Origin: Naegleria gruberi
Taxonomy: Eukaryota
Direction: 5' to 3' (one strand)
NCBI GenBank assembly: GCA_000004985.1
Contig: GG738860.1
Length of the DNA stretch: 64,000 nt
Part shown: positions 43,399-64,000 of the stretch, piece by piece
Layout of the letters: every line of letters begins with the position of its first letter
Position numbering within the stretch: position 1 is the stretch's first letter
The notes under the pieces: model-generated
What the model saw: only the letters and a program-made list of their open reading frames with translations
Database searches by the model: none
Told to the model about the DNA's origin: nothing
Translations under genes and position numbers: made by a program

Positions 43399-45826
43399 AT
43401 GACAGCACAATCATCAATACCTCTCAAATGGCCTTCTTTGATAGAATTTCTACCAGTTGTCTTGGTTGGAATCATCATAGAGTGGTGTTGGGCAGATAGG
43501 AGTGGATTTGCTCTGGCCCAAACTCCAGAAATCAATCAGTATTTAGGATTTAGGATCATCACTGAACAAATTAATGCTTCTTCTACAATAGTTTCGAATA
43601 TTTCATCATCATCAAATGATTCGCTAATATGTCATCCAATATTATTGAGTCAAGGTTTTAAGAGTAACTTGGGGCTGTGTGATGATTATTTTTCTTCCTA
43701 TATTGTAATGGGAACTATTCTTTCATGTTATTCTATTCTTTTGCTGATAACATTGAGTGGTCTGTTCTACAAATTGAGGAAATTAAAACAGGCTGAACAG
43801 TTCAATCATTTAAAGGTGAACTTTATCAGTGCTAGAAATCCTGTCCTTATGATTTGGGGTGCAGTAGTTGGCTGGTTGTATACCTTAATCATGTCATCGA
43901 GGGTATTGATAGGTCGTAAGATATTCCCCTGTTTTTTATTTTCTCTAATCTACTACTTGTCTGTACCTGGATTGGCCAGCACTATTATCATTAGATGTGT
44001 TAGACTTATAGCCCTAACAAAGTTGCACGAATTGAAAGTTAGGATTGGAAAACGTGAAATGCTCCAAGAGAAGGAAGAAGGAAAAATAAGTACAATTCAA
44101 ATAACGAATAATAAGGAAGTGAAACAATTTGAAAATGAAAGTAATATCCAAATTGTCATTAAAATGGCAGAATCCTTTGATAATATTATGCCACCTCCTC
44201 CAATCTATAACAAACCTCTCTCCACTGACCTCTCCAATACGACAACCACTGTGACAACAATGACAACAAATAGCCAAGAGGAGACAGACACCCACTCAAC
44301 TAGAGAGCACAATTCATTTCATAATGAAGTTTGCGAAATGAATAATCATCAAAGAAGTAATTCTGTCATATCCAATGAAGGCTTACAACCATCATCTGTG
44401 AGTACCCCAAGCACTGTAAATACTTTGGTTTCCTGTGGAATGAGTGTTTCTCCATCGAGAACCTATTCTTCAGCAAATGGTGTTCTACATCTAATACAAT
44501 CAAATGATGAAGAACCATGTCAACAACATTCTATCATTGTGGATATTACCAAATTGCACGAATTGGATCTAAGTACTCGACAAAATGAACCCAAACAAGC
44601 AGATAAATTCTATGGTAATGAATTCAGATTATCTAATGTAAATTTTGAAAATGGAAAATTGTTGAGATTGTTAAGATTTCTAACAGGATCCAAATTCATC
44701 TTGATATTTTACATTCTCATATTGGGAACTCACACATTGGTCTATTTGATTGTGGGAATTGTTGATTATTTCAATTACAAAAGTCCAGATCCAAAACTCA
44801 ACAGCATCAATAAGAAGAATGCCTTTGTGGTGGATACATACCTATTCTCCCCAAATGGTTGTGGAACTGGAAGTTACAATACTAATTACTTCCTTGGAAT
44901 GTTATCAGTGTATGCTTCATTTTCAGTCTTGTTGGCCATAGTTGCCATTGTAGTGATGAAGAAGGATGTTTGGCAAGTGAAGAGAGAAGTTGTACTAGTT
45001 GCCATTAATTGGATTCTATGTATTGCAATTTTTGGTATTCCAAATATGTTCAGTAGTATTACCACATTGTAAGTATTAAATCTCATGTGTATTAATGAAT
45101 GATAATAATACTTCGAATAATAGAGTGGATTATTACTTTCCATGGACTTCTACCATCCTCTTGTCATGTTTATCAGACATGATAATTTCCTGTACTATTC
45201 CAGTGTTCTTCCTACAGCAAGTGGACAATTCTAATAGCAAGAATAACATCAAAGAAATTGGAGACGCTGATCTACACAAGTGTTTAAAGAATCAAAAGTG
45301 GAATGGTCTCTTTTTAAAGTATTCAGAGCAGTGTTTTGCTTGTGAAGATATCATGTTTTGGAATGCTGTAGAGCAATTCAAGAGTGTTACAGCAGAGAGG
45401 CTCAAGAGAGAACTCTTCTACAACATCTACAGGACCTATATTAGAATTGGAGCACCACTAGAGTTGAATATTGCACGAAGAGAGTTTGGAATACCAGAAA
45501 TTGAAAGTCAATTTAATGTTCTATGCAAGCAAGTATCCTATCATCATGAAACTTTATCAGTTGTAGGGAAATCCAATAATAATAATAATAATAATAATCA
45601 TCAAATGGGAATGTCCAAGTCGAGATATGTAGACTTGTCCAGCAGTGAGAATATTAGTGTGAGGAGTGATATCTTTGATCAAGTACAATTAGGTTGCGAG
45701 CACAATATGAGAGACAACTTTTATAGATTTAACTTGACTCATAGTGAAATGTCTGCTAAATTGGTGCGCAGAGGGTTGGTGCATAATGATGATAATGAAG
45801 GTGTCCTGTTCAACCCGGTTGAATAA
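43399..45826 (+). CDS. seven-transmembrane protein fused to a C-terminal RGS domain (7TM-RGS); intron near 45070-45180, exact junction unresolved
   Basis: Multiple hydrophobic helices in 43399-45072. RGS core LHKCLKNQKWNGLFLKYSEQCFACEDIMFWNAVEQFKSV...LFYNIYRTYIRIGAPLELNI. GTAAGT at 45070. Confidence 0.6.
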
Positions 45827-49787: not shown

Positions 49788-52550
49788 ATGACACGAATTG
49801 CACCCTCAACGGATAAAGATGAAGAAATGGATGATAATCATGCATTATCAGATGAAGACTCTCAACAAGAAGAGGTAACTCCAAAAGAGAGGAAACCACC
49901 AGCCTCTATCAAGTGTCTCTTAATTGTATTGGTGGTTGTCGCTGTTGTCGCCACCGTTCTTCTTCTCACGACCATTTGGATTTCATGTTTCTCATCGAGT
50001 GTTTCATCCCTTTCTGTCTCACTCATGTCAGAACAATTTACCAAAATCATAAGTTTCACAGACTCTACTATTAAGGATGTAATAATGGTCTCTGAGAATG
50101 CAAAGAATACCATGTGGTGGGATTANNNNNNNNNNNNNNNNNNNNNNNNNNNNNNNNNNNNNNNNNNNNNNNNNNNNNNNNNNNNNNNNNNNNNNNNNNN
50201 NNNNNNNNNNNNNNNNNNNNNNNNNNNNNNNNNNNNNNNNNNNNNNNNNNNNNNNNNNNNNNNNNNNNNNNNNNNNNNNNNNNNNNNNNNNNNNNNNNNN
50301 NNNNNNNNNNNNNNNNNNNNNNNNNNNNNNNNNNNNNNNNNNNNNNNNNNNNNNNNNNNNNNNNNNNNNNNNNNNNNNNNNNNNNNNNNNNNNNNNNNNN
50401 NNNNNNNNNNNNNNNNNNNNNNNNNNNNNNNNNNNNNNNNNNNNNNNNNNNNNNNNNNNNNNNNNNNNNNNNNNNNNNNNNNNNNNNNNNNNNNNNNNNN
50501 NNNNNNNNNNNNNNNNNNNNNNNNNNNNNNNNNNNNNNNNNNNNNNNNNNNNNNNNNNNNNNNNNNNNNNNNNNNNNNNNNNNNNNNNNNNNNNNNNNNN
50601 NNNNNNNNNNNNNNNNNNNNNNNNCTGCTTCAAATGAGACTGATATATCGGGGATCAACTTTGATTGGTACTTTGGATTTGATATTTCTGTTGCAACTAT
50701 TAGTAATTATCTAAAAGATATAACTGAAAAAATCACTGGATCTTTGGCTTTTATCATTGAAATTGAGACAGAATTTATTGTTGCCTCAAGTTATCCAGAG
50801 ATTCCCGTGACCAAATGGGATGATAAAGGAAATCAAGAAAGAAAGAAGGCTATCAATTTTGGAGTACCAGAAGTTGAGCAAGTTGGTCTATTCCTCTATG
50901 AAAGATATCAGAAAAAGTTGGATTCATTAAGTTGTGGAACTTTTGAGTTTTTATCATTTCAGGATAGATATGTTAATGTGTATAGAATGTGCAATCAAGC
51001 CAACATTAATTGGTAAGTATCCTGTAAATATTAATTACTGACCGGTGGAAAAGGTTATTTGTATTCTCAGTTCCTCAATGGAACTATCTAGGAACCATGA
51101 TTATCGCCATAATTGCAGCTCTTTCTTCATCTATTGTAATTGTCATTGTTGGTCTCTTATTTGGGGTATATTCCTCCTTCAAGATTGTAAAGCCGTTCCA
51201 TAATTTAATAGATTTATTTGCAAGTGTTTCAAACATGGATTTGGATAATATCATTGTTCTTCCATCTCCTTTCAGAGAAGTTCATCAATTACAATTACAC
51301 TTCAAAACTATGGTTGTTAAGATTAAACAATATCGATGCTTTATTCCTCCTCACTTACTAGCTCAAATTGATGCCGAAGGAGCTGGTGATGAAAATGATA
51401 GGGATTTTGAAAAACCTTCCATTAGAGCCGCCAAGGATCACAATACAACACAATCTTCTCTGAGAAGTGGGAAATCTTCGAGACATTCTGGAATTTCACG
51501 TTCAGGAAATGCAACATCAAATTATCATTCAACCTCCAACCAATCATCATTCCGTCCCGTCTCCAAATCACTTTTCAAATTGGGGCTTGAAAAGAAGAAG
51601 ATTACAGTGGCCAACTTTTATTTTGTGGGATTGGACTATTGTATGGAAAATTTATCAGACTCAGAGCTTGTAACAGTAATGTCAGATTATTTCGAAGTCA
51701 TTCAAAAAGTTGCCAAACTCACTCTAGGACAATTGGGTTCTTTTGAGGATAATTCAATGACCATCAGCTGGAATTCAACATCAGAAGTTTCCAATCATGA
51801 AGAGAAGGGTGTTGCCTCCTCTCATCAAATCCTCCTTAAACTTTCACAATTGAAAGAAACTAAATGGAAAAAGAAGGAACATTTAGTTAAGAAAGATTTA
51901 TTACAAAACGTTGATTTTAGAGCTTCAATTTTAACACAAGTTTGTAGATGTGGTAATTTAGGTATGTTTAATTGATTGAAATTTAGTCTAATTTACATTA
52001 TTAGGTACGCAAGAAATTAAAACCTACTCAATTGTTGGAAGTTATCTTCACAATTTACACAAGATTATGAAACATGGTTTGAAGTTGAATGTCAAATTGA
52101 TTGCTTCTGAGGAAACTTTGTTTAAATCGAATGATACTCACCAACATAGATTGGTGGGAGTGAAGAAGGTTCTTTCTCCAGATGAAACAAGCGCAGAATT
52201 CTTCTCTGACTCTCAAAAGGTAAATAAGAGAAAGATTAAATTATTTGAGATTGGAGAAACTAATCAAGTCAATGAGGATGGTAAGTTTATTTTACAATTT
52301 CTTTGAAATTTTTAAACGAACACAATCAGAGTGGATGTATGAATTACAACAACATAAATCAAAGGAAAAATGGAAACTCTACAATGAAGCCTGTCTATTA
52401 ATGGAAGAGGAAAAGTATGAAGATGCCATTACTAGTTTCGAATCCTACTTGTTATCATATAGAGCAGAAACCAATGAAGATATATGTGCTTGTTATATGA
52501 TTAAGAAATGTTACAAATTGCTGCAAAACAAAGCTAACCAAAACAATTGA
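49788..52550 (+). CDS. two-TM receptor with extracellular Cache-like sensor, HAMP-like linker and a degenerate (likely inactive) class III cyclase-homology domain plus helical C-terminus; 5 exons, interrupted by assembly gap
   Basis: TM1 LLIVLVVVAVVATVLLLTTIW. Sensor ITGSLAFIIEIETEFIVASSYPE. TM2 IIAIIAALSSSIVIVIVGLLFGVY. KITVANFYFVGLDYCMENLSDSELVTVMSDYFEVIQKVAKLTLGQLGSFEDNSMTISWN parallels cyclase VTVLFSDIVGFTSL...YFT...IE..GGTV.KFIGDAVMAVFG with both metal Asp replaced. Introns 51976-52018 and 52272-52331 verified in frame. The 51017-51095 junction is not in frame. Confidence 0.5.
50126..50624. other. assembly gap (499 N)
   Basis: Run of N inside the CDS above. Confidence 1.
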
Positions 52551-52695
52551 TTCAAATTCAACTCTTCAATTTCAATTTCAAAGTTTACTTGCAGCGACAG
52601 ATATCAATGACAACAATTTAACACCAGATTCTAAATAAGAAATAACATAAAAAAATATTAAAATTGATTAAATCATCACTTCAAAACCATCTTCA

Positions 52696-54969
52696 ATGAC
52701 ACAGAAAAAACAAAAACAGAAGAAGGCAAAGAAGGAGAAGGAACTTTGGGGAGATGATGTTTCTCCCATGCCAACCACCATGAAGGATTACTTTGCACAA
52801 TTATCACAAGATTGTTCCGAACAGGAGGCAACCATTCTTGATCATGAACCTGTACAACACTGTAAGAAGGAACGAAATCCTCCGAGTGAAAAGAAGAAGG
52901 AAAAGAAAAAGAATGCCCAGCCAGCATCTTCTTCAGTTGCCGCCACTTCTTCGGACGTTGTGGATAATGATGAGAATAATGAAACTGATCGTGGAAAAAC
53001 GCAAGAATCTAAAAAGAAGAAACAAATGTCGAATAGTGATTATTTGGAATTATTGGAATCTTCTCTTGATGATGAAGAGAAGATGATTTATTCGAATTCA
53101 TCAAGGATTACAACAACTGCAGCAATGACATCATATATCTATGCAACACCATATAAAGTACTACCACCAGTACAGCCACCCAAAAGAATTGAGCTACCTC
53201 CAACCTTTGACAAGATTGAAGATCTTCTTAAGGAACTCAGTTTAACCTTTGAATATTTCAAAGTTCAGGATAATTCAACAAGCAAAACAATATATTTGGA
53301 AAAATTAGTCCACATGACAGATTCTCTCTCTAAAAAGTGTTTTCAGAAGGCAGATAAGAATGCTATTTTCATGCTAGGAGGGTTGAATTTTGTATGTGTA
53401 TTGTTTGCATATTTTGCCTCTGGAGAGAATGAAAATGAACAATATGAAAAGATTATCAATTCACTTTCCTATGTTCTGTATAGATTTTCAGATCACAATA
53501 GAGCTAGAAGTGCCATGTTGACAACTGGTGTATTCTATTCTCTGTGGTATGTTGGAGGGTTGAGTAAGAATATTTCTACACTTTCACATGTGAACGAAGT
53601 GATTGACTTGTTGGGAGGTCAATTATCTATTGGATTCGAGTTGAGTAATCTATTGACCAAATCAAATAGCCAACTATTGGATATTTCTTACATTTCAACA
53701 GAAAAGACTGTTGATTCTTCATCACAAACAATCTATTCAGATGGTTTCACTTTCCCAGATACATTTTTGGGCGTTGGAACAGATTTTGTATCATTATCGG
53801 AGAATAACTTTCCAATCCAATTACATTATTCGATTATCATTTCTAGAACTAGTAATTTCCTCTCTGATTTTTGTGTCAAGTGGGATCCAACAACGGGACA
53901 AGTTGTAGAGAATTCTAAAAACCCTGGCTTTTATCTAATGAAAGATAGTAACATTTCTTGGTATGCTCTTTTGAAATTCGTACAGTTATTGTACACTGAC
54001 AAAATTTCTGTATGTAAAGAAGAAAGAGAAAGAGAGCTGAAGAATAGGAATTCAATTTTTGAATCCAAACTAGTGTCGGAGGGTTTTCCTCGCTTATTAA
54101 CTACATTGAGAAATCAAAAAACTAGGGAAAATGCCATAAATTGTATGAGCACTTTAACATCTATGGAGGATCACGAGGAGTGTGATAATGGTGGACTATT
54201 TGATGAATTCGATAATGAGCTCGTCAATGATGAGTTGAATTACTTTTTTGGAAAGCCACTCAATTATTGGTATTTACCAAAACCAAAAGAGAATAACTTC
54301 TCAACTGATTTTTTGAGAAAAAAGGAGAAAATTAGACAACAAGCAATTTTATTGAGTGGATTGGAACAAGATCTGGGATCTTTATATGTGGAAATGATTA
54401 GCAGTCAGACATTTAAAGCCGAGGAAGCTAAAGCTCTGTCATTCTATCCAAATGTTAAGGTAATGCTCGCCGACACTCTCGGAGAAATAGACCACATTTT
54501 GGAAGAGCATATTAATTCAATTCCAGTTTTGAAGAATATTATTGATTGTAAAGGATTCTACCTTCACAAATCAATACTTGCAACAAGAAGTGAATTTATG
54601 AAAAAGCTAATGCAATACGATTTGGAACAAACAGAAAATGGCATGGATGTGGTCTATATCAACAACTTTTCCCTTTCAACTTTATTCACAGTTTTCCAAT
54701 TCATGTATGGTGGATTGAGTGAAGAAGGTTTCCCACTCCTCTTCACTGAAAACTTAGTGGAATGCTTTTTAGCAGCTGACATGTTTCTTCTCTTTGGATT
54801 GAAAAAGTATGCAGAACAGAAAATATGTGAACAAATTACATTGGAAAGTGTACAGGATCTATACCACATTTCAATCATTTACAATTCTGACCTCATTAAG
54901 GATAAGTGCATTGAAATCATGTCCAAGAATAATATTATCTATGAGAGTGATATCAAAAAGTTAAAGTAA
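52696..54969 (+). CDS. BTB/POZ-domain protein with Lys-rich N-terminus
   Basis: C-terminal DCKGFYLHKSILATRSEFMKKLMQ...VVYINNFSLSTLFTVFQFMYGG...ENLVECFLAADMFLLFGLKKYAEQKI (BTB plus BACK-like). Confidence 0.6.
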   Translation: MTQKKQKQKKAKKEKELWGDDVSPMPTTMKDYFAQLSQDCSEQEATILDHEPVQHCKKERNPPSEKKKEKKKNAQPASSSVAATSSDVVDNDENNETDRGKTQESKKKKQMSNSDYLELLESSLDDEEKMIYSNSSRITTTAAMTSYIYATPYKVLPPVQPPKRIELPPTFDKIEDLLKELSLTFEYFKVQDNSTSKTIYLEKLVHMTDSLSKKCFQKADKNAIFMLGGLNFVCVLFAYFASGENENEQYEKIINSLSYVLYRFSDHNRARSAMLTTGVFYSLWYVGGLSKNISTLSHVNEVIDLLGGQLSIGFELSNLLTKSNSQLLDISYISTEKTVDSSSQTIYSDGFTFPDTFLGVGTDFVSLSENNFPIQLHYSIIISRTSNFLSDFCVKWDPTTGQVVENSKNPGFYLMKDSNISWYALLKFVQLLYTDKISVCKEERERELKNRNSIFESKLVSEGFPRLLTTLRNQKTRENAINCMSTLTSMEDHEECDNGGLFDEFDNELVNDELNYFFGKPLNYWYLPKPKENNFSTDFLRKKEKIRQQAILLSGLEQDLGSLYVEMISSQTFKAEEAKALSFYPNVKVMLADTLGEIDHILEEHINSIPVLKNIIDCKGFYLHKSILATRSEFMKKLMQYDLEQTENGMDVVYINNFSLSTLFTVFQFMYGGLSEEGFPLLFTENLVECFLAADMFLLFGLKKYAEQKICEQITLESVQDLYHISIIYNSDLIKDKCIEIMSKNNIIYESDIKKLK

Positions 54970-55183
54970 CCTATCAATATCAACATTACCTTATGACCAT
55001 TAGTGTGTAACCTTCAAAACAACCTCTCTAGAATTACCCAAACCTTGATCAAAAAAGCCCCGAATTGAAAACTCCGTTTGTGTTGGGTACTGTAATGTCA
55101 TCAGACCACTAAGTACTTTAGAAAAAATTAAAACACACCTTTGCTGTTCAGTATCATCATTTATTTGAACAGCTAGCTTCATA

Positions 55184-56785
55184 ATGTTGTCAGCCCTCTC
55201 ACAAAATATTCTTTCTAGTAGTACTGGTTCAAATGGGAAAAGCCTTTCCGATGTGTTGAAGAATGATAGGGAATCACTGTTGAAGAATCCGATCCAACTT
55301 ATTCAGCTAATTCATCACGAAATTGATCACATGGTTGAAAAATCAAGGAAAATTGAAGGAGAGTTGAGTACTCACTTTTTGAATAAGGATTCAAGCATGT
55401 TTGTTAAAAAGGAAGATGATGATAAGAATTCTTCATCACCAATTACAATGATTTCACAATTTGTGGAAAAGTTGAATGGTTCTGAGGGTGGAGTCTTGGC
55501 AAGCTTTCCAATTAATACTGAGCTTGTTGAAAAATTCAAAGGATCTTCTGATATATTACTGAAGGCCTTTGATACTATCAAGGATCATTTGGGAGATGGT
55601 TCACTTGTTTCAGGTGGGTGTATGTTTAGTATTGTTGCATGTTGTGTTGCTGCCATGTTGGAAGAAATTGAAAATAATGCAAAGGAAGAATGGCAGAAAC
55701 TCTATTCAGAAGCAAAGGAAACTATTGATGAATTCAAACAAAAGATTTCATCTACACTAGTGGAAACTATTGCCAAGTTGAAGGAAATTGGAACTGAAAC
55801 ATTGAATGAAATCAAACGATCCATTCAAAAAGGTTGTGAGTTGGCCTCAAGTTTCCCTAAGGAAGTTAGAGAAGAAATTGAGAATATTGCAAAGAGACAT
55901 TTGGAAGAGTTCAAGAATGTCACCAATCTCATGAAACACTTGAAGGAAAAGAACTTTTTAACAAATCAATTCGAACAATTCCATCAAGAGTTCAAGGCTC
56001 TTGTCACTAGTTTTGCCGACAGATTTATCAAGGAATTATTAGGAAATATTATTGGAACCATTGTCAAATTTTTTAAATCTATTGCTCAAGTCTTTAGAGG
56101 TTTGATTAAGGAATCTTTTGGAATTATTATTGAAATTGTGAAAAAGATCTTTGAATTTGTCAAGTCAGCCCCAGAGAGATTGAGAAAGATATTTGACTTT
56201 TCAGGAAATTGTATGGCCATGCTATGTTTATCTGCTCCACAGGAGATGATTGATAAGGCAGCCAATGAAGCAACCAATTTAATGAACATGATTCCAGTCG
56301 ATAAGATTATTTCACCACTCGAAGAANNNNNNNNNNNNNNNNNNNNNNNNNNNNNNNNNNNNNNNNNNNNNNNNNNNNNNNNNNNNNNNNNNNNNNNNNN
56401 NNNNNNNNNNNNNNNNNNNNNNNNNNNNNNNNNNNNNNNNNNNNNNNNNNNNNNNNNNNNNNNNNNNNNNNNNNNNNNNNNNNNNNNNNNNNNNNNNNNN
56501 NNNNNNNNNNNNNNNNNNTTCAACTCTATTGTAGCTCAAGCAGAGGAAAAGATGGAAGGAATTGAAAAACTTACTCCTCTCTTTGAAGAACAACTCCATC
56601 TCTTCTCTCAATTTGATTCTGATTTAGATCATGTCAAAGTTCTTGTGGCCGAAATTGAAGAAAAGGGAATGAATCTTGTTGGAGATAAACTTGACAAGGT
56701 TTTAGAAAAGGTTTCAGATGTATTACACATACCAAAACTTGGAGGAGAATCATCACCACTTGCTGGTATTAAAAAGTTGTTCTAA
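55184..56785 (+). CDS. alpha-helical repeat/coiled-coil protein of unknown function (interrupted by 192-N gap)
   Basis: 533-aa ORF with heptad-like EEIENIAKRHLEEFKNV, IAKLKEIGTETLNEIKRSIQ. Confidence 0.4.
   Translation: MLSALSQNILSSSTGSNGKSLSDVLKNDRESLLKNPIQLIQLIHHEIDHMVEKSRKIEGELSTHFLNKDSSMFVKKEDDDKNSSSPITMISQFVEKLNGSEGGVLASFPINTELVEKFKGSSDILLKAFDTIKDHLGDGSLVSGGCMFSIVACCVAAMLEEIENNAKEEWQKLYSEAKETIDEFKQKISSTLVETIAKLKEIGTETLNEIKRSIQKGCELASSFPKEVREEIENIAKRHLEEFKNVTNLMKHLKEKNFLTNQFEQFHQEFKALVTSFADRFIKELLGNIIGTIVKFFKSIAQVFRGLIKESFGIIIEIVKKIFEFVKSAPERLRKIFDFSGNCMAMLCLSAPQEMIDKAANEATNLMNMIPVDKIISPLEEXXXXXXXXXXXXXXXXXXXXXXXXXXXXXXXXXXXXXXXXXXXXXXXXXXXXXXXXXXXXXXXXFNSIVAQAEEKMEGIEKLTPLFEEQLHLFSQFDSDLDHVKVLVAEIEEKGMNLVGDKLDKVLEKVSDVLHIPKLGGESSPLAGIKKLF
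56327..56518. other. assembly gap (192 N)
   Basis: Run of N. Confidence 1.
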
Positions 56786-57192: not shown

Positions 57193-60100
57193 ATGTTTGT
57201 TGTTTCCCCTTCCAAAAAAAAACAATCTCTACCCAAAAAATTGTACAAGTTTTACCTTAGACACTGTTTCCTTAGAGAAAACAACAAAAATATCAACACC
57301 AGCAGCACTCATCACTCTATTCAATCTATCTATTTGGTCATGAATAGTACATCTAATATTTTAGCCACGGGGGATGTATCGAGCAGTTTGGGAAGAGACT
57401 CTCGTTCATTTGAGAGAGGTTTCTTCTCCATGGCTACATCTCAGGCTCATGTGGGAGGAAGTGGTTCCATTGTTTCTAGTAATTCGAATGGTGATGGCTC
57501 CGATTCATTATCTGAATATACAAATTCTTCCATTGTGGCCAGTTTTGAGGAGAAGATTTCCACATTAATCTTGAGTCTACAACAACATTCAGGCTTGAAA
57601 GAAACAAATTGGTGGAACTTTTTCTTTACACTTTTCTATCATTGTATTGTTATATGGAGTATGGTATTTCTTCCGTCCATAGACGAGAGAGGTATGAATT
57701 GGGATGCCAATGGAAAGTGGTTGTGGAGAGCAACCAATTATTTAGTAACTCTCTCCCTCAATATTTCTTCCTTTGATGTTGTCATTGGTATTCTGGTGGG
57801 TTTCTTTGTTATTATTACTACATGTATTATCATGGTAGGTGTATCATATAAGGCCATCCAATCAACGAGCAAATATTGGAATAGAATCAAGGTGATCACA
57901 AGAGTAGTATTGGGCTTTCTTCTTTTAACTTCAATGATTTATTCCTATGTCTATAGTTTGATTCTGTCATGTAATTATGGCACCAAAGTTCAATTAGTTG
58001 TTAATGAACAAACTGTGGAGGTTTTGCGAGACTTTCAACTTGTGGCTTGTACAAGCTCTATGAATTCTGCTTTCATTGCTGTGGGTGGTTTCTTTTTCAT
58101 TGTTTTACTAGTACTAAACATACTAGCAACACTAGTTCTCTTTGACAACAATCCAACGAGTAAGAATTGGTTTTGTGCAGAGACCAACCTTGCCTTTATT
58201 CCAATAGTACCATTGAGTAGCGTTTTTATTATCCTGATGGGTGTGTTACCTAATCGAGCTTCATTTGCTTTTATTCTTCCAATTATTTACATTGTTTTTT
58301 CTCTAGGATATATTGTATTCTTCTTCTACATGTTACCCTTCTACCGAAGAATGGAGAACTCTATATATGTTGGATTTCATTTTGCTAGGTTAGGATCTGC
58401 TATTGGTTATTTAATTTCTAGTATTGTAAATAACATCTCAGGAGTATCAGACACTGTGAAATTAGGCATGTTGGGAGTTGTATTGGGACTGGCTATTATA
58501 TTTGCAATTTCTGCCTTTTTTGCATGTGAATTGTACTTGAGATTGGCTTGTGCCTCCATTAGACAAATTTTAACTGAAAGTGAGCTCTCCAAAGATGAAA
58601 AAACTGGAGGAGGAAGTGTAGCTGTCAATATTGAACGAGATGCAACATTCCTCTATCAAATTATAGAATCTCAAGGCAAACTAAGACAATTGAAATTATT
58701 CTTCCGTTTCTGCAAGTCTTACAAGAAGATGGTTGGTGATGATATATACACTGATCTGGACTCATGTCTCAGATTAATTAAGGGGTTATTTTCTCAGAGA
58801 ACCACCAGTAAGATGCCTTTTGGTGTTTTACTTTCCTCTGCTGTTATTGTTGCCTATTTTAATCCAATTATTGTATTGAGTATTTCAGTTTCAACAACAA
58901 TGCTAAAGAGAGCTCAAAAACAAGTGCACAACATTATTGGAAGATATCTTGTCTTGGAGAAGACTAAAGATTTTGAGTTCCTCTATGGTAAGGATGCATC
59001 TGGTAAAAACATTATGGAAATTAAGAATTTGATTTCCAAATTAGAAAGGAAGCAATTAATTATTCATTATTTACACAAGGCCTTTTGGAAAGAATTTATT
59101 CAAAACGATCAGATTGATGTTGGTAAGGTGGAGAGTATTAATAGACAAATTACCTCCCTCACTTTATCTTGTAACAGTTCGTACGAGGCTCTCTCACAAA
59201 GTTATCCAAGTGACAAGACTATAATCAGATCTCATGCAAGATTTGTTGAAGAATGTTTATTTCAACCTGAAAGTGCTAATGAAATGTTCCAAGAAGCTCA
59301 GCAAATTGAAGAAGAAGAAACTGTTAATGCAAGAAAGTTCTTACAAAAGAATAGGACAAATAAGATTGTTCCAACCATGTCCACTCTAATAATTGATCAT
59401 TCAACTGAGCAAATGAAACAAAATCCAATTAATTCGTCAATGGACCACGATGACGATATTGAAAATGAAAGATTTGATGGTGTTGAAAATACAGAGTCAG
59501 CCACCAAAAAGGTAGACTTGCTATTCAGATCCTCCCTTGCCTATTCTATGAAAAATCAAATTCAACTTTCATCATTTATTGTATTTTCCATTATTTCAGT
59601 AATCTTATTATTGTGTGGTATGATTTTGAGCATTGTAATCTCCTTAAATGTTTCGGGAGATATTTATTTATCCAAAGATATATGTATGCCGGCTGCTGTA
59701 CCACTTGGGTTAACAAGAAGAGTAAGAGAGAAACAAGCAAGAATGACACTTCTCCCTTCTGATATGGAATGGCAAGCTAATCATGTTTCAAAATTGCAAA
59801 ACTTTTTCAAAACTCTTCACACGTTACAAGATTTGAGTAGCACTAATGAGATATCTCCTGCAGTAAGAGCTGATTATGTAAAGAACACAAGAAAATATCG
59901 TCAACCATTGTTGATTTATTCAGACACCAATGTGAATGTTTGGAAGAATTATTCAATTGATAGAAATATTTCTGTTGCAGATATTACAACTTCACTGATC
60001 AATAACTGTGAAGTGATGATTGATTATACTGATGAACAATACAATCATACTGCTGATAGTATGAATTTCATGTACCTATACCTTAATAGAATTAACTTTA

Positions 60101-62444
60101 GTTTAGGATATGAAACATTTTGTAATGAATTCTTGCTTAGAAATCAAGAAAAGAGTACCATGTACAGAGATACCTTCCTTATTTACTATGCATCTTCAAC
60201 TGCCTTGTACGTATTGTGTGCTCTTGTCATGATTCTAGCTACCAATTATTTCCTGTCCTCCCTAAAAGATGCAATCAAGTTGATAGACAAACGTATTCCA
60301 AAAGATAAGATAGGAAAGATTTATCAAACTTTGAATACAAAGATTAATGACGACATGCAAATAGGAAATTCCGGTTTGTTTGCTACGCTTACTAAACCAA
60401 ATAATCTTATTGCTATATTAGTTATTTCTATCATAGTGGTTACAGTTGGATGTGTTTCATTATTCTTTGTTGAGACTACCATTAATTCTCAATTTTCTGC
60501 AAACGCCATTCAAAATATTCAAGCCAGTGTGGTAATTATCATGACTTCACAACGTATTGGTTTGAGATTACAGGAAATTTTCATTTATGGTGTGAAGGAT
60601 ATATCTAGCAGCTTGCCATTAAAGAAATCCACCTTAACTTCAGCCACTGAACTTCAAAATTTCCATGAAGACCACAAAAACTTGGTCACTCTTATTAGAA
60701 CTAAATGGAATGGTTTACTTTATGGTACAGAAGATAATGACTATCAAAAATTGACAGGTGTTTATCAAAAGATTGATAATATCATTAATGGTATTGATGA
60801 TCGTAATCAAACAAGTTTGATTAATGGTACATCTAGTTGTGAAAGTTTGTCTGATCTCATTACTTATATCCTTAACTCGGGCACTTTATTCAATGAAGAC
60901 GTTTATTACAATCCAAACAAGTACACTGGTCCACAAGTATTTGCATGGTCTCAACAATTGTTTTTCAAAATAGATCACTTGGGAGAATCTCTTACTAAAT
61001 TTATTGAAGCATATTCCAATTATGCAAAGAATCCATCCCTTGCCATTACAATTTCTTTCTTTATATTTGGTTTCATAGCTCTGATTGTTTTGATTTATAT
61101 CACCTATACATCAATGAGATCTTTCTGGGATGAATACAAACAGTTTAGAATAATGTTGAACTTTTTCCCAAGTGACTTGTTGGATGATGAGGTATTGAAA
61201 AAGTTTATTCTCCACAAGGAACTTCCATCAAAAATACAAATCAAGAAGAAACAAACTTCAGCTGCAAGTGGATCAGAAATTAATGACGTAATGCACAGTT
61301 CTGTAGACGGAACAGTAATGTGTAATGAAAAGGGTGAAATTTGCTTATTCAATCCTGTAGTGGAAAGTTTCTTCAGTCTCAAAAGTGGAGATGTAGTAGG
61401 ATTGAATGTTTTAACACTTTTTAGTGAACCTTATCATGGACCAATCAGTAAAGTTATGAACCACTTGATTGACAAGTCTATAACAAAGGGAGAATCTCAT
61501 GAAGTGGAATGTGTAAGAAAGAATCAATCCTATTTCCCTGCAAGAGTTAACATTTTTGCAAGCCATGCCAAGATTATTTTCATTATTAGAGACATTACTG
61601 CTGAAAAGAAACAAAACATCCTTCTTGAAGAAGAGAAGAAAAAATCCGAGTCCTTATTGAGAAACATCCTTCCAGAGGAGGTGGCCAAACGTTTAAAGTC
61701 AGGTGAAACATTTATTGCCGATAATTTTCCTGATATTACATGTTTCTTTTCTGATATGGTAGGATTTACAGCAATTAGTTCCACAATGACAGCCACTGAT
61801 CTCGTTAAAATGTTGAATACTATTGTGAATGGATTTGATGATTTAACAGACTTCTATAAATTGGAAAAGATCAAGACTATTGGTGGTAAGTTTTTAGTGA
61901 TTATATTTTAAATAACTATTGAGTAGATGCTTACTTTTGTATTGGAGGTATTTCTGTTGGTCACACATCAAGCGATCACCCAGAAAAGGTTTTAAAGTTT
62001 GCCATTGATGTTTTTAATGTTCTAAAGAGTTATAATTCTCAAAATTTTGACAAGCAAATTAATATTAGAGCTGGATTAAATACAGGTAGTGCTGTTGCAG
62101 GAGTAATTGGTAAACGAAAATTTGCTTTTGGTAAGTTGGAATAGTTACTGAGCTTGGATTTTAATATTTTACAAGACTTGTGGGGAGACGCGATTAACAC
62201 CGCTTCTAGAATGGAAAGTACATCTGAAACTGGAAGAATTCAAGTTAGTAGATCAACTTATGAAAGAGTATACGATTTGGGATACTCATTTGAGGAAAGA
62301 GAGCAAAATGTTAAAGGAAAAGGAATGATGAAATGTTATTTATTAGACAAGTCCCATCATGTTGATCCAATTGTAAGGGATAACTTTACTACAACAGATT
62401 TTTCTGATGTCGACAGCAAGGATGATCAAATTGTGTACAAGTAG
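57193..62444 (+). CDS. large multi-pass membrane protein with PAS domain and C-terminal class III adenylyl/guanylyl cyclase catalytic domain; exons 57193-61885, 61927-62130, 62176-62444
   Basis: More than 12 hydrophobic helices. PAS: VDGTVMCNEKGEICLFNPVVESFFSLKSGDVVGLNVLTLFSEPYHG...ARVNIFASHAKIIFIIRDITAEK. Cyclase: FFSDMVGFTAISS...LEKIKTIG|DAYFCIGG...RAGLNTGSAVAGVIGKRKFAF|DLWGDAINTASRMESTSETGRIQVS. Introns of 41 and 45 nt (GTAAGT...AG). Confidence 0.8.
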
Positions 62445-64000
62445 GCCATCAAATAAATATCAACAACAAGATAATCCTTCTATTGTTTTTCTCAACTACC
62501 TTTCTTTAATTGAGAAGTTTCCTTATCAACAAATTCAGATAAATAGTAAACTTTGGAAAGTATAAATTATGATTTTCTATGGTTTTCTGAAAAGCAGCTA
62601 TTTTGATATGAGCTGATGAAATACCTTCTATCTCAATTAATTTGACAGATATTGAAATAATAAATTGTACAGAGAGAGAGTATATCACTGGGAATCTATC
62701 TTCTTCTAATGAATGTTTCTCATCCCTTATTCATTGGATAAAATAGTAAAGTATCACAAATATTAAAAGTAAAATATATAATAGTGAAAATTACAGTAAA
62801 AGATAAACATCTGGTAGAGAATGGATGACATGCTATTCGTGATGTTGCAGTGAGAAGTCATTATCCAAATCATGAGAAAAACAATAACAACATGAAAATA
62901 TCAGATATCCACGATTTTCAGAAATTATGCTACAAGACTCGAAATTATACATTTAATAACATAATAAACATTATGAATTGTTGTTTTATTGTTGTTTGAT
63001 TTGTAATTGGGCTATGAATCAACTCTGGTAGCATCAAATATCGGAATTTGGTAAATTGACAACATGACGAAAATCTGATAATAAATATGATGTTTATTAT
63101 CTATTTAAATAGTAGTACTAAAAGACATGATTCAAGTTGGTGAAGTACATGTTGAGTTATGATCCATGTACTTTTTCAAAATTCACATCTACCTATCCCT
63201 ATCATAACTTGACCAAAATTGATAAGAGAAAGTTCTCCTACCTACTATTGACCATTCCGAACAATACTACATTGACAGTTTTCCAACTTGTCCAGTAGAT
63301 CCAGCAGTGATGATGAATTTAGTGAAAATTTTGACATTGCACCAAAATTACATTACTAAAAATTAATTTCCACAAATACTATTATTATATTGATGGAAAA
63401 CAATAATGATGGTTGGTGAATGATCCGATGATGGAACACCAAATTGTGATTTTCCATCATGAAAAATAAATTCCAATTTCATGATGATAATCCACCAATA
63501 AAAATTACTATTATTACTACTATATAGATCATGTTGAGATGATGATGTGAAAGTTTGGTGGTTTCATGATGTAAAACCACTCCGAAAATCATCATGCCCA
63601 TAGAGGACCATTTGGTGAATATTTTTTGATTCTTATCTTGGTCTAGGGAAGATTGTCATAATTACGACCCTCACTTTTTGACCCACCCAACCTCACTGTA
63701 AGATCGTCCCAACAAATCCTGGCCACTGCATGTGAGCTTTTTCACACATGTTACCGCTGAAAGTTGAATGTTCTGACCGTTAAATATTCAACAAAAAAAA
63801 CAACAAACAACAATTACCCATGATTTCATCACCACCCTGCTAACTACCAACATCAGTACCAGGAGGAGAGTTCTCCCTTTGCCTCCTTCCACATCAGCCA
63901 TAGCACATTCAACCATAACAATCCAGATGAATGCCTGCCCAAAGTTGTTGGTACACAAACAATCAAGAACCCAGAAGTACTTGTTGCTAGCAGAACAAGT

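Follow-up and report, generated by a model that had tools for sequence, protein, structure and literature searches.

A two-pass sensor receptor of Naegleria gruberi with a catalytically degenerate class III cyclase domain

What does a receptor do with a cyclase domain that has lost the residues required for catalysis? This question is raised by a gene at positions 49788-52550 (+ strand) of a stretch of 64,000 nucleotides of Naegleria gruberi DNA (contig GG738860.1, assembly GCA_000004985.1), which we call the window. A preliminary description, made from the sequence alone, took the gene to encode a sensor receptor with two transmembrane segments (TM1 and TM2) and a catalytically degenerate class III cyclase-homology domain (CHD). 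Profile searches, fold comparison and residue losses bear out this core reading. We lean towards the view that the protein is a two-pass receptor whose pseudo-CHD output is a non-catalytic, dimeric conformational switch.

A cyclase fold without its catalytic residues

Is the domain that follows TM2 a cyclase domain at all? Pfam does not recognise it: PF00211, dCache and HAMP have no match in the window protein, even at E<=10. The gathering score of PF00211 is 21.9 bits, and two of the 11 aligned family members match this family, both with E=0.02. As a positive control, the canonical cyclase encoded within the window scores 177.7 bits. When the window protein alone is compared with the PDB, three adenylyl cyclases rank first (E of about 0.02). 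A profile of ten family sequences matches ten distinct cyclase sequences in the PDB, with E-values from 5.6e-10 to 4e-4. These include CyaB (3r5g, E=5.6e-10), Cya2 (2w01, 9.6e-8), CyaC (2e-5) as well as OaPAC and bPAC (both below 1e-3), and the CyaB alignment spans most of the domain.

The fold points the same way. We modelled the CHD and tail segment of the Naegleria fowleri ortholog (P0001) with AlphaFold. The predicted local distance difference test (pLDDT) of this model is about 90 over residues 10-130, and the model contains the beta-alpha-beta-beta-alpha-beta core of the CHD fold. In a Foldseek search its top 50 PDB matches are all CHDs (E 8.8e-10 to 9e-7, TMt up to 0.83). The domain after TM2 is a class III CHD homolog, on the basis of the family profile and the fold of the ortholog model. 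Because both of these tests are positive, we do not read the Pfam null as a refutation. The preliminary description had named the lack of a PF00211 match or of fold similarity as a result that would speak against it: the PF00211 match is absent, but the fold similarity is present (Foldseek E=8.8e-10). The collinearity with class III cyclase domains that it had noticed is found in both the hidden Markov model (HMM) and the MAFFT alignments.

Class III cyclases work by a two-metal mechanism. Both Asp come from one protomer, and Lys, Asp/Thr, Asn and Arg come from the other. The base is specified by Lys with Asp/Thr for adenine and by Glu with Cys for guanine. We mapped these residues by aligning the retrieved sequences to the family HMM, with CyaB as control, and independently with MAFFT together with seven intact cyclases. 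In the HMM alignment the CyaB control reads D, G, K, D, R, G, T, N and R, as it should. The domain and its altered sites are the following:

51571-52171, + strand: degenerate class III CHD, spanning intron 2 (family profile and ortholog fold)
51619-51621, + strand: first metal-binding Asp (Asp1), replaced by Tyr (codon TAT); FxDIxGFT becomes NFYFVGLD
51751-51753, + strand: second metal-binding Asp (Asp2), replaced by Asn (codon AAT); KFxGD becomes SFEDN
52052-52066, + strand: NLHKI, with the Asn of the catalytic position kept (52052-54) and the transition-state Arg replaced by Ile (52064-66)

At the other positions the window protein keeps the Gly of GFT and the beta4 Arg. The adenine Lys (KFxGD), four residues upstream of the Asp2 position, is Ser. 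Two residues before Asp2, where canonical cyclases are variable, there is Glu. The Gly of HTG has become Gln, and Thr has become Ser, a conservative change.

Both metal-binding Asp are thus replaced (D to Y and D to N), as had been proposed. The proposal was to fall if a proper alignment brought the Asp back, and both alignments place Tyr and Asn at these positions. MAFFT agrees with the HMM mapping except for a one-residue register shift around the Asn and Arg. A different claim has to be corrected. The downstream RIGIHTG / N-TASRME block had been called not recognisable; it is recognisable, since FRASILTQVCRCGNLGTQEIKTYSIVGSYLHNLHKIM aligns with IRMGINTGYCTVGNFGADTRMDYTIIGREVNLASRLE and the Asn is kept. 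The RIGIHTG / NxxSR block of the window protein is FRASILTQVCRCGNLG...HNL.

The losses are common to the whole core family of 55 representatives at 50% identity. Asp1 is acidic in 0/53 of these representatives (Y 14, H 12, L 8, K 7, F 4, R 3 and others). Altogether the replacements are Y/H/L/K/F/R/Q/C/S/M, and ten different residues at one position argue that no alternative catalytic residue has been selected there. The Arg position is basic in 0/55 (L 30, M 20, I 3, V 2), and the adenine Lys is kept in 2/55. The Asp2 position holds D 26, G 10, N 9 and E 9 times (acidic in 35/55), and the residue two before it is E or D in 50/55. The family also keeps the Asn (49/55), Thr/Ser (43/55) and the beta4 Arg/Lys (43/55).

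Hence the two metal-binding Asp, the base-specifying Lys of the Lys plus Asp/Thr pair and the Arg of NxxxR are missing from what defines a class III active site. Under the two-metal mechanism, a domain without these residues cannot complete either half-site. It follows from this mechanism that the intracellular CHD, judged by its sequence, should be unable to synthesise cyclic AMP (cAMP) or cyclic GMP (cGMP).

A domain that has lost catalysis could simply be decaying. Yet the CHD core has kept pace with the sensor domain: between the window protein and its N. fowleri ortholog, 56% of the residues are identical in the CHD core and 58% in the ectodomain, which argues against decay. The juxtamembrane region reaches 69% and the C-terminal tail 51%; the linker and the insert behind the CHD fall to 28% and 30%. 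Within the CHD, the E of FEN, NHEEK, SQxCxCGNxG and HNL are invariant and specific to the family. In the tail, the D-E pair of DEWMYEL is kept in every member that has the tail segment. This pattern points to purifying selection on the CHD together with its tail, and suggests that the domain is retained for a non-catalytic role. The tail itself resembles tetratricopeptide repeats (TPR). TPR_2 matches it in 4/11 members, at best with E=0.017 and below the cut-off, and designed TPR proteins match the family profile weakly (E=2-9).

Architecture and gene model of the receptor

How is the domain built into the receptor? From the N-terminus, the order is TM1, an ectodomain of predicted dCache fold, TM2, a HAMP-like module (unproven as HAMP), a helix resembling the cyclase transducer element (CTE), a Ser-rich linker of 66 aa, the CHD and the TPR-like tail. 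An acidic cytosolic N-terminus of about 40 aa lies upstream of TM1. The features of the gene are:

49788-52550, + strand: whole gene; four visible exons and three introns, TGA stop ending at 52550
49788-51012, + strand: exon 1, interrupted by the N gap
49908-49991, + strand: TM1 (IKCLLIVLVVVAVVATVLLLTTIWISCF), Kyte-Doolittle 19-residue peak 3.23
49992-50125, + strand: start of the ectodomain before the gap, the long N-terminal helix of the predicted dCache fold; 71% identity to P0001
50126-50624, no strand: gap of 499 N in the assembly; about 137 residues, belonging to the membrane-distal dCache module, fall within it
50627-51090, + strand: membrane-proximal part of the ectodomain of predicted dCache fold, spanning intron 1; 55-58% identity to P0001
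51013-51053, + strand: intron 1, 41 nt
51054-51961, + strand: exon 2
51091-51180, + strand: TM2, Kyte-Doolittle peak 2.86
51181-51330, + strand: juxtamembrane two-helix module, HAMP-like (KIVKPF...NMDLD...EVHQLQLHFKTMV); 69% identity to the ortholog
51331-51372, + strand: CTE-like helix YRCFIPPHLLAQID, collinear with ARYVPKAVVKEL of the bacterial protein P0124
51373-51570, + strand: non-conserved linker of 66 aa, rich in Ser/Thr/Asn/Gln, between the CTE-like helix and beta1 of the CHD
51962-52004, + strand: intron 2, 43 nt
52005-52280, + strand: exon 3
52172-52276, + strand: variable insert between CHD and tail; pLDDT <50 in the ortholog model (residues 185-246)
52277-52523, + strand: conserved helical TPR-like tail, starting with DEWMYEL and spanning intron 3; three helices in the ortholog model
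52281-52329, + strand: intron 3, 49 nt
52330-52550, + strand: exon 4, ending with TGA

The window is AT-rich eukaryotic DNA with a G+C content of about 33%. The open reading frame (ORF) begins on the + strand at the ATG at 49788, which is preceded by an in-frame stop, and runs into the gap of 499 N at 50126-50624. We built the gene model by trying all GT-AG combinations around the candidate junctions, with collinearity to the orthologs as the criterion. A single combination is collinear with the orthologs. Its splice junctions ANINW|LFVFSVPQW, CGNLG|TQEIK and NED|EWMYEL agree with N. fowleri P0001. An acceptor at 51070 for intron 1 was rejected, since the frame would be broken; with the 41-nt intron the protein is again collinear with the orthologs. 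The donor at 51952, used by the public model, was also rejected, as it deletes the NLG of the family-invariant CGNxG motif. The spliced gene at 49788-52550 therefore stands as first drawn, with four exons and three introns visible instead of the five exons then counted. The gap does interrupt the ectodomain, as had been noted. The reading frame differs on its two sides, thus its true length is not 499, which is a nominal value.

An exhaustive protein search shows that the public model of the locus is XP_002678806.1 / EFC46062.1, 'predicted protein, partial [Naegleria gruberi]', of 1446 aa. This model is a chimera of three genes (51097-56224). It joins the pseudo-cyclase to a BTB gene (52702-54963) and a coiled-coil gene (55217-56224), and it begins at a Met at 51097, inside TM2. 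The pseudo-cyclase gene is without a correct public model, and the chimera needs correction.

Two hydrophobic segments, with Kyte-Doolittle peaks of 3.2 and 2.9, provide the TM1 and TM2 of the preliminary description. What lies between them? The description had seen a Cache-like signature. In sequence searches, the Pfam Cache families have no match in the window protein (E<=10) or in any of the 11 family members, and the ectodomain profile has no match among PDB sequences. The signature is nevertheless found at the level of the fold. The model of the P0001 ectodomain (pLDDT 89, predicted template-modelling score 0.86) carries its double PAS-like (PDC) fold on a long helix at the N-terminus. 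Each of its 50 best PDB matches is a ligand-binding domain of dCache type (E 2e-8 to 1.5e-5). TlpQ (6fu4) is the best match, with E=2e-8. The matches comprise TlpQ, PctD, Tlp3, PctA-C and HK1S-Z, which are bacterial chemoreceptors and histidine kinases. The piece of the window protein before the gap corresponds to helix 2-45 of the model. By the ortholog model, then, the ectodomain is predicted to be a dCache fold.

The juxtamembrane module is the region best conserved with the N. fowleri ortholog. It had been called HAMP-like. A HAMP domain contributes two amphipathic helices per monomer to a parallel four-helix bundle. The pattern of the module (a Pro in helix 1, a DL connector, ExxxLxxxFxxM) and its place after TM2 fit HAMP, but it is not demonstrated to be one; Pfam HAMP has no match in the window protein at E<=10. 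Across the family, Pfam HAMP matches the module weakly in 1/11 members (E=0.073), and the module profile has no match among PDB sequences. An hhalign comparison aligns the region with that of the bacterial dCache_1-cyclase P0124 over 65 gapless columns (E=3.4e-4); the P0124 region itself is not a Pfam HAMP. Directly behind the module, FIPPHLLAQI is collinear with YVPKAVVKEL of this catalytically intact bacterial cyclase. A CTE is a conserved helix of about 19 residues that directly precedes the CHD. The helix found here resembles a CTE at the level of the sequence pattern, and we call it CTE-like in this sense. Compared with P0124, FIPPHLLAQI and F.L.LEKK.IT form the two ends of the usual short connection between CTE and beta1.

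In the Naegleria proteins this connection is opened by the linker. In the aligned members it measures 45-66 aa, consists of S/T/N/Q to 40-56% and is 11-28% identical. Its length ranges from 30 to 78 aa in 48 core members, and the bacterial relatives have about 7 residues at the same place.

In the linkers of the 48 core proteins (22% Ser) there are 34 copies of the basophilic-kinase motif [RK][RK]x[ST], spread over 25/48 proteins. Composition-preserving shuffles give 12.7 +/- 3.2, and 0/1000 shuffles reach 34; this expectation does not control for the relatedness of the proteins. The linker of the window protein (51373-51570) has no strict motif of this kind. The motifs are possible sites of phosphorylation by protein kinase A (PKA) or other AGC kinases just upstream of the pseudo-CHD.

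A multigene family and its genomic setting

How widespread are such receptors? A first homology search returned three fragments and, at full length (790-995 aa), proteins of N. fowleri (52% identity), N. lovaniensis and N. gruberi. None of these relatives carries a precomputed Pfam domain. Several are named 'Guanylate cyclase domain-containing protein' by UniRef, and the automatic names in the family also include 'adenylate cyclase'. Scoring 1.84 billion representatives with a profile of the C-terminal region gives 60 proteins with E<=1e-30 and 674 with E<=1e-10. Beyond the core family there is a more divergent shell with the same ectodomain and juxtamembrane module, to which proteins from Acrasis kona, Percolomonas cosmopolitus and the diplonemid Lacrimia belong.

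Many metagenomic members of the shell (P0071-P0151, from JGI/Logan contigs) are 1150-1190 aa long. One shell protein, P0075, has N-terminal ankyrin repeats and matches the ectodomain, juxtamembrane and CHD-plus-tail profiles of the family. In N. fowleri, P0027 (XP_044560960.1) combines a NIT ectodomain (nitrate/nitrite-sensing, PF08376, E=5.7e-13) with the same degenerate CHD and tail. Hence Naegleria pairs the dead-cyclase module with at least two types of sensor.

Among the intact relatives, the highest scores go to CHASE2-cyclase-TPR proteins and dCache_1-cyclases of bacterial or metagenomic source, which have full catalytic sets, and most of the nearest intact relatives carry a weak TPR_2-like tail. 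The gene is a member of a multigene family of Naegleria and other Heterolobosea, which probably descends from bacterial-type sensor-cyclase-TPR receptors. The sequences fit an early loss of catalysis by a bacterial-type receptor cyclase in Heterolobosea, followed by diversification.

For Naegleria, a survey based on Pfam lists a single protein with a Cache domain, described as 'a bacterial-type adenylate cyclase' (PMC4822843). By the fold evidence there are many more, and dCache-type sensing is far commoner in a eukaryote than this single protein indicates. The genomes of Naegleria are reported to encode at least 81 cyclases, which have been taken as a sign of rich cAMP/cGMP sensing (PMC9928731). 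On pseudo-cyclases or degenerate cyclases the literature available to us holds essentially nothing, and it contains no large, constrained, family-wide class of dead-cyclase receptors with a TPR-like tail. Receptor cyclases and degenerate CHD subunits are already known; a constrained class of this kind appears to be undescribed.

Does the neighbourhood of the gene tell us anything about its function? A canonical gene with PAS and cyclase domains starts at 57193, 4.6 kb downstream (PF00211 177.7 bits, PAS_9 E=6e-13). The preliminary description had pointed to this proximity. The neighbour is indeed canonical, but the proximity is not conserved in N. fowleri, and we give it no functional weight. 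At the N. fowleri ortholog locus (L001, VFQX01000043.1:26431-49103), synteny with the window is limited to the upstream WD40 gene, and within 10 kb downstream of the ortholog none of the BTB, coiled-coil and PAS-cyclase genes is found. Like the pseudo-cyclase, the neighbour is a Naegleria membrane protein with a C-terminal domain of CHD fold. It differs in being class IIIa-like (FFSDMVGFT, KTIGDAY, GLNTG, GDAINTASRMES) and in lacking the TPR-like tail. A close relation or functional link between the two was rejected: hhalign against the family profile gives E=0.074, there is no shared tail and there is no synteny in N. fowleri.

The PAS-cyclase (57193-62700) begins with an N-terminal region of more than 1200 aa, in which hydrophobic segments are numerous but no domain is recognised. 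Two short introns interrupt its cyclase domain, one in the KTIG|D codon and one in the KFAF|D codon. A second assembly gap, of 192 N (56327-56518), lies inside the coiled-coil gene at 55184-56785. At 43399-45826, an ORF with multiple transmembrane segments precedes one that encodes an RGS domain (PF00615, E=1.9e-9), and the two are probably one spliced seven-transmembrane (7TM)-RGS gene. 7TM-RGS genes of this kind have been described in N. fowleri (PMC9283941).

Possible roles and known systems

If the domain does not make cyclic nucleotides, how could the receptor signal? We propose the following. The extracellular dCache-fold domain would sense a small-molecule ligand, as its fold and the bacterial receptors suggest. 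The juxtamembrane two-helix module and the CTE-like helix would relay the signal across the membrane, again by analogy of fold and with bacterial receptors. A ligand-dependent rearrangement of the pseudo-CHD dimer and its tail could then control the binding of a cytosolic partner, so that the output would come from the pseudo-CHD and TPR-like tail without catalysis. The kept Ser/Thr, Asn and beta4 Arg may permit nucleotide binding without turnover.

Several points weigh against this proposal. The structure models are those of the N. fowleri ortholog, which is 53% identical to the window protein over CHD and tail, and the overall pLDDT of the CHD model is 72.9, a moderate confidence. The TPR assignment of the tail is weak (E of about 0.02). 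A flexible linker of 30-78 aa would loosen the mechanical coupling between membrane and pseudo-CHD, which is awkward for a conformational relay. Finally, HMMER and MAFFT are ambiguous around the catalytic Asn and Arg: in the window protein only, the MAFFT shift puts His at the Asn and Lys at the Arg. Here we favour the HMM alignment, because the invariant Asn is the fourth residue of helix 147-161 of the model, which is the register of the canonical D-T-V-N-L-A-S-R (alpha4).

The degenerate domain might instead complete somebody else's active site, or poison it as a dominant negative. As a non-catalytic or modulatory subunit, the pseudo-CHD would pair with a competent Naegleria CHD, and the dCache domain would tune cAMP/cGMP indirectly. 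Class III CHDs form head-to-tail dimers in which one site can be degenerate, as in mammalian transmembrane adenylyl cyclases (tmAC, C1/C2) and soluble guanylyl cyclase (sGC). The family keeps the Asn, Ser/Thr and beta4 Arg; the at least 81 cyclases encoded by Naegleria (PMC9928731) would offer partners, and in chytrids the NeoR cyclase domain is inactive alone and forms an obligate heterodimer with RGC (PMC10622942). However, the CHD fits neither half-site. Without Asp1 it cannot take the C1-like role, and without Lys and Arg it cannot take the C2-like role. Nor do the best 150 representatives contain an intact Naegleria protein of the same CHD subtype; the intact ones of which the source was looked up, a sample, are bacterial or metagenomic. 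The class IIIa-like PAS-cyclase next door is marginally similar at best (hhalign E=0.074), and its gene is not syntenic in N. fowleri. We think this pairing unlikely. Another possible use is that of a nucleotide sensor: the old pocket could bind ATP, GTP or a cyclic nucleotide without turnover and thereby gate the output. Degenerate GGDEF domains that bind GTP and pseudokinases that bind ATP are analogues of such a sensor. The contacts to base, ribose and phosphate are selectively kept (Thr/Ser 43/55, Asn 49/55, beta4 Arg/Lys 43/55), most members have an acidic residue at or beside Asp2, and the residues required for chemistry are lost. In the alignment, the conserved E of FEN, the Q that replaces the Gly of HTG and the N of HNL line the former active site. 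All of this is purely alignment inference, the same conservation could equally serve a dimer interface, and losing both metal ligands and the Lys would also weaken nucleotide binding. As the main role of the domain, we regard nucleotide sensing as quite improbable.

Could the domain still be an active cyclase that uses other residues, for example the invariant Glu of FEN with a neighbouring Asp or Asn? The Glu at -2 is nearly invariant (E/D 50/55), the Asp2 position is acidic in 35/55, the window protein has adjacent Glu and Asp (FEDN), and several members bear the UniRef label of a guanylate cyclase domain. Against this, the beta1 Asp position is unconserved and the Arg position is always hydrophobic. 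PF00211 does not match the window protein, in contrast to the 177.7 bits of the real cyclase in the same window. Moreover, the same Glu occurs in intact bacterial relatives (KYEGD, KFEGD), hence it is ancestral and not compensating. Retained activity is very unlikely. We give almost no credence to a decaying pseudogene or to an artefact of annotation or of the N gap. The gap does interrupt the gene, the frame changes across it and the public model is chimeric. Yet the frame is intact over three canonical GT-AG introns, the protein is collinear with full-length orthologs of N. fowleri and N. lovaniensis, CHD conservation equals that of the sensor domain, and the same substitutions are common to the family.

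A wider reading can be put forward. The surface receptors of Heterolobosea may include an entire class whose cyclase domain, of bacterial type, has become a non-enzymatic module of pseudo-CHD and TPR-like tail, in dCache and NIT versions and with many paralogs in each genome. The module would act as a ligand-gated scaffold or nucleotide sensor, and the Ser-rich linker with its kinase motifs would tie it to feedback from cAMP/PKA. This is a tentative extension, and we would sooner expect it to fail than to hold. If true, it would be a receptor output mechanism without a described counterpart, and a sizeable fraction of the counted Naegleria 'cyclases' would not be cyclases. The core alone has 55 representatives and several members have automatic 'cyclase' names, so the family would inflate the reported total for Naegleria. 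For pseudo-enzyme biology, the family would be a natural, family-wide case of a cyclase fold reused as receptor output, and a handle on signalling by CHD dimers without catalysis. The pathogen N. fowleri has orthologs, so these receptors may matter for its environmental sensing.

How does the receptor compare with known systems? Degenerate GGDEF domains that bind GTP and the kinase-homology domain of receptor guanylyl cyclases embody the same concept in other folds and families, and serve as an analogy only. Mammalian tmAC C1/C2 and sGC alpha/beta are heterodimeric class III cyclases with degenerate subunits. The heterodimeric cyclases, including the chytrid NeoR/RGC photoreceptors, have one complete half-site and a closely related active partner, which is often encoded next door. 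The Naegleria family differs from them: neither half-site is complete, degeneracy extends over all of the multigene family, and the best 150 representatives include no active partner of its subtype. The likeness to NeoR is that a receptor-linked CHD, inactive alone, has been kept to serve structure or regulation. CcNeoR4, too, has no canonical CTE and lacks the metal- and base-binding residues (PMC10622942).

The nearest systems are bacterial sensor cyclases of class IIIb type, namely the metagenomic dCache_1-cyclase P0124 and the CHASE2-cyclase-TPR proteins P0098, P0099 (Cand. Peregrinibacteria), P0101 and P0152. Among described proteins, Rv2435c of M. tuberculosis has been cited as a dCache cyclase (PMC4822843). 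Of all catalytically intact relatives, sensor cyclases of this type score best with the family profile, and the juxtamembrane region of P0124 aligns without gaps. They share the plan of the Naegleria receptor: an extracytoplasmic sensor between two transmembrane segments, juxtamembrane helices, a helix of 'YVPxxV' type, a CHD and mostly a short TPR-like tail. The differences lie in two places. About 7 residues precede beta1 in the bacterial proteins, where the Naegleria family has a disordered insert of 30-78 aa. In the bacterial cyclases D, D, K, T, N and R are all present, and their PF00211 scores are 87-95 bits; the window protein, which Pfam does not recognise, reads Y, N, S, S, N and I at the same positions.

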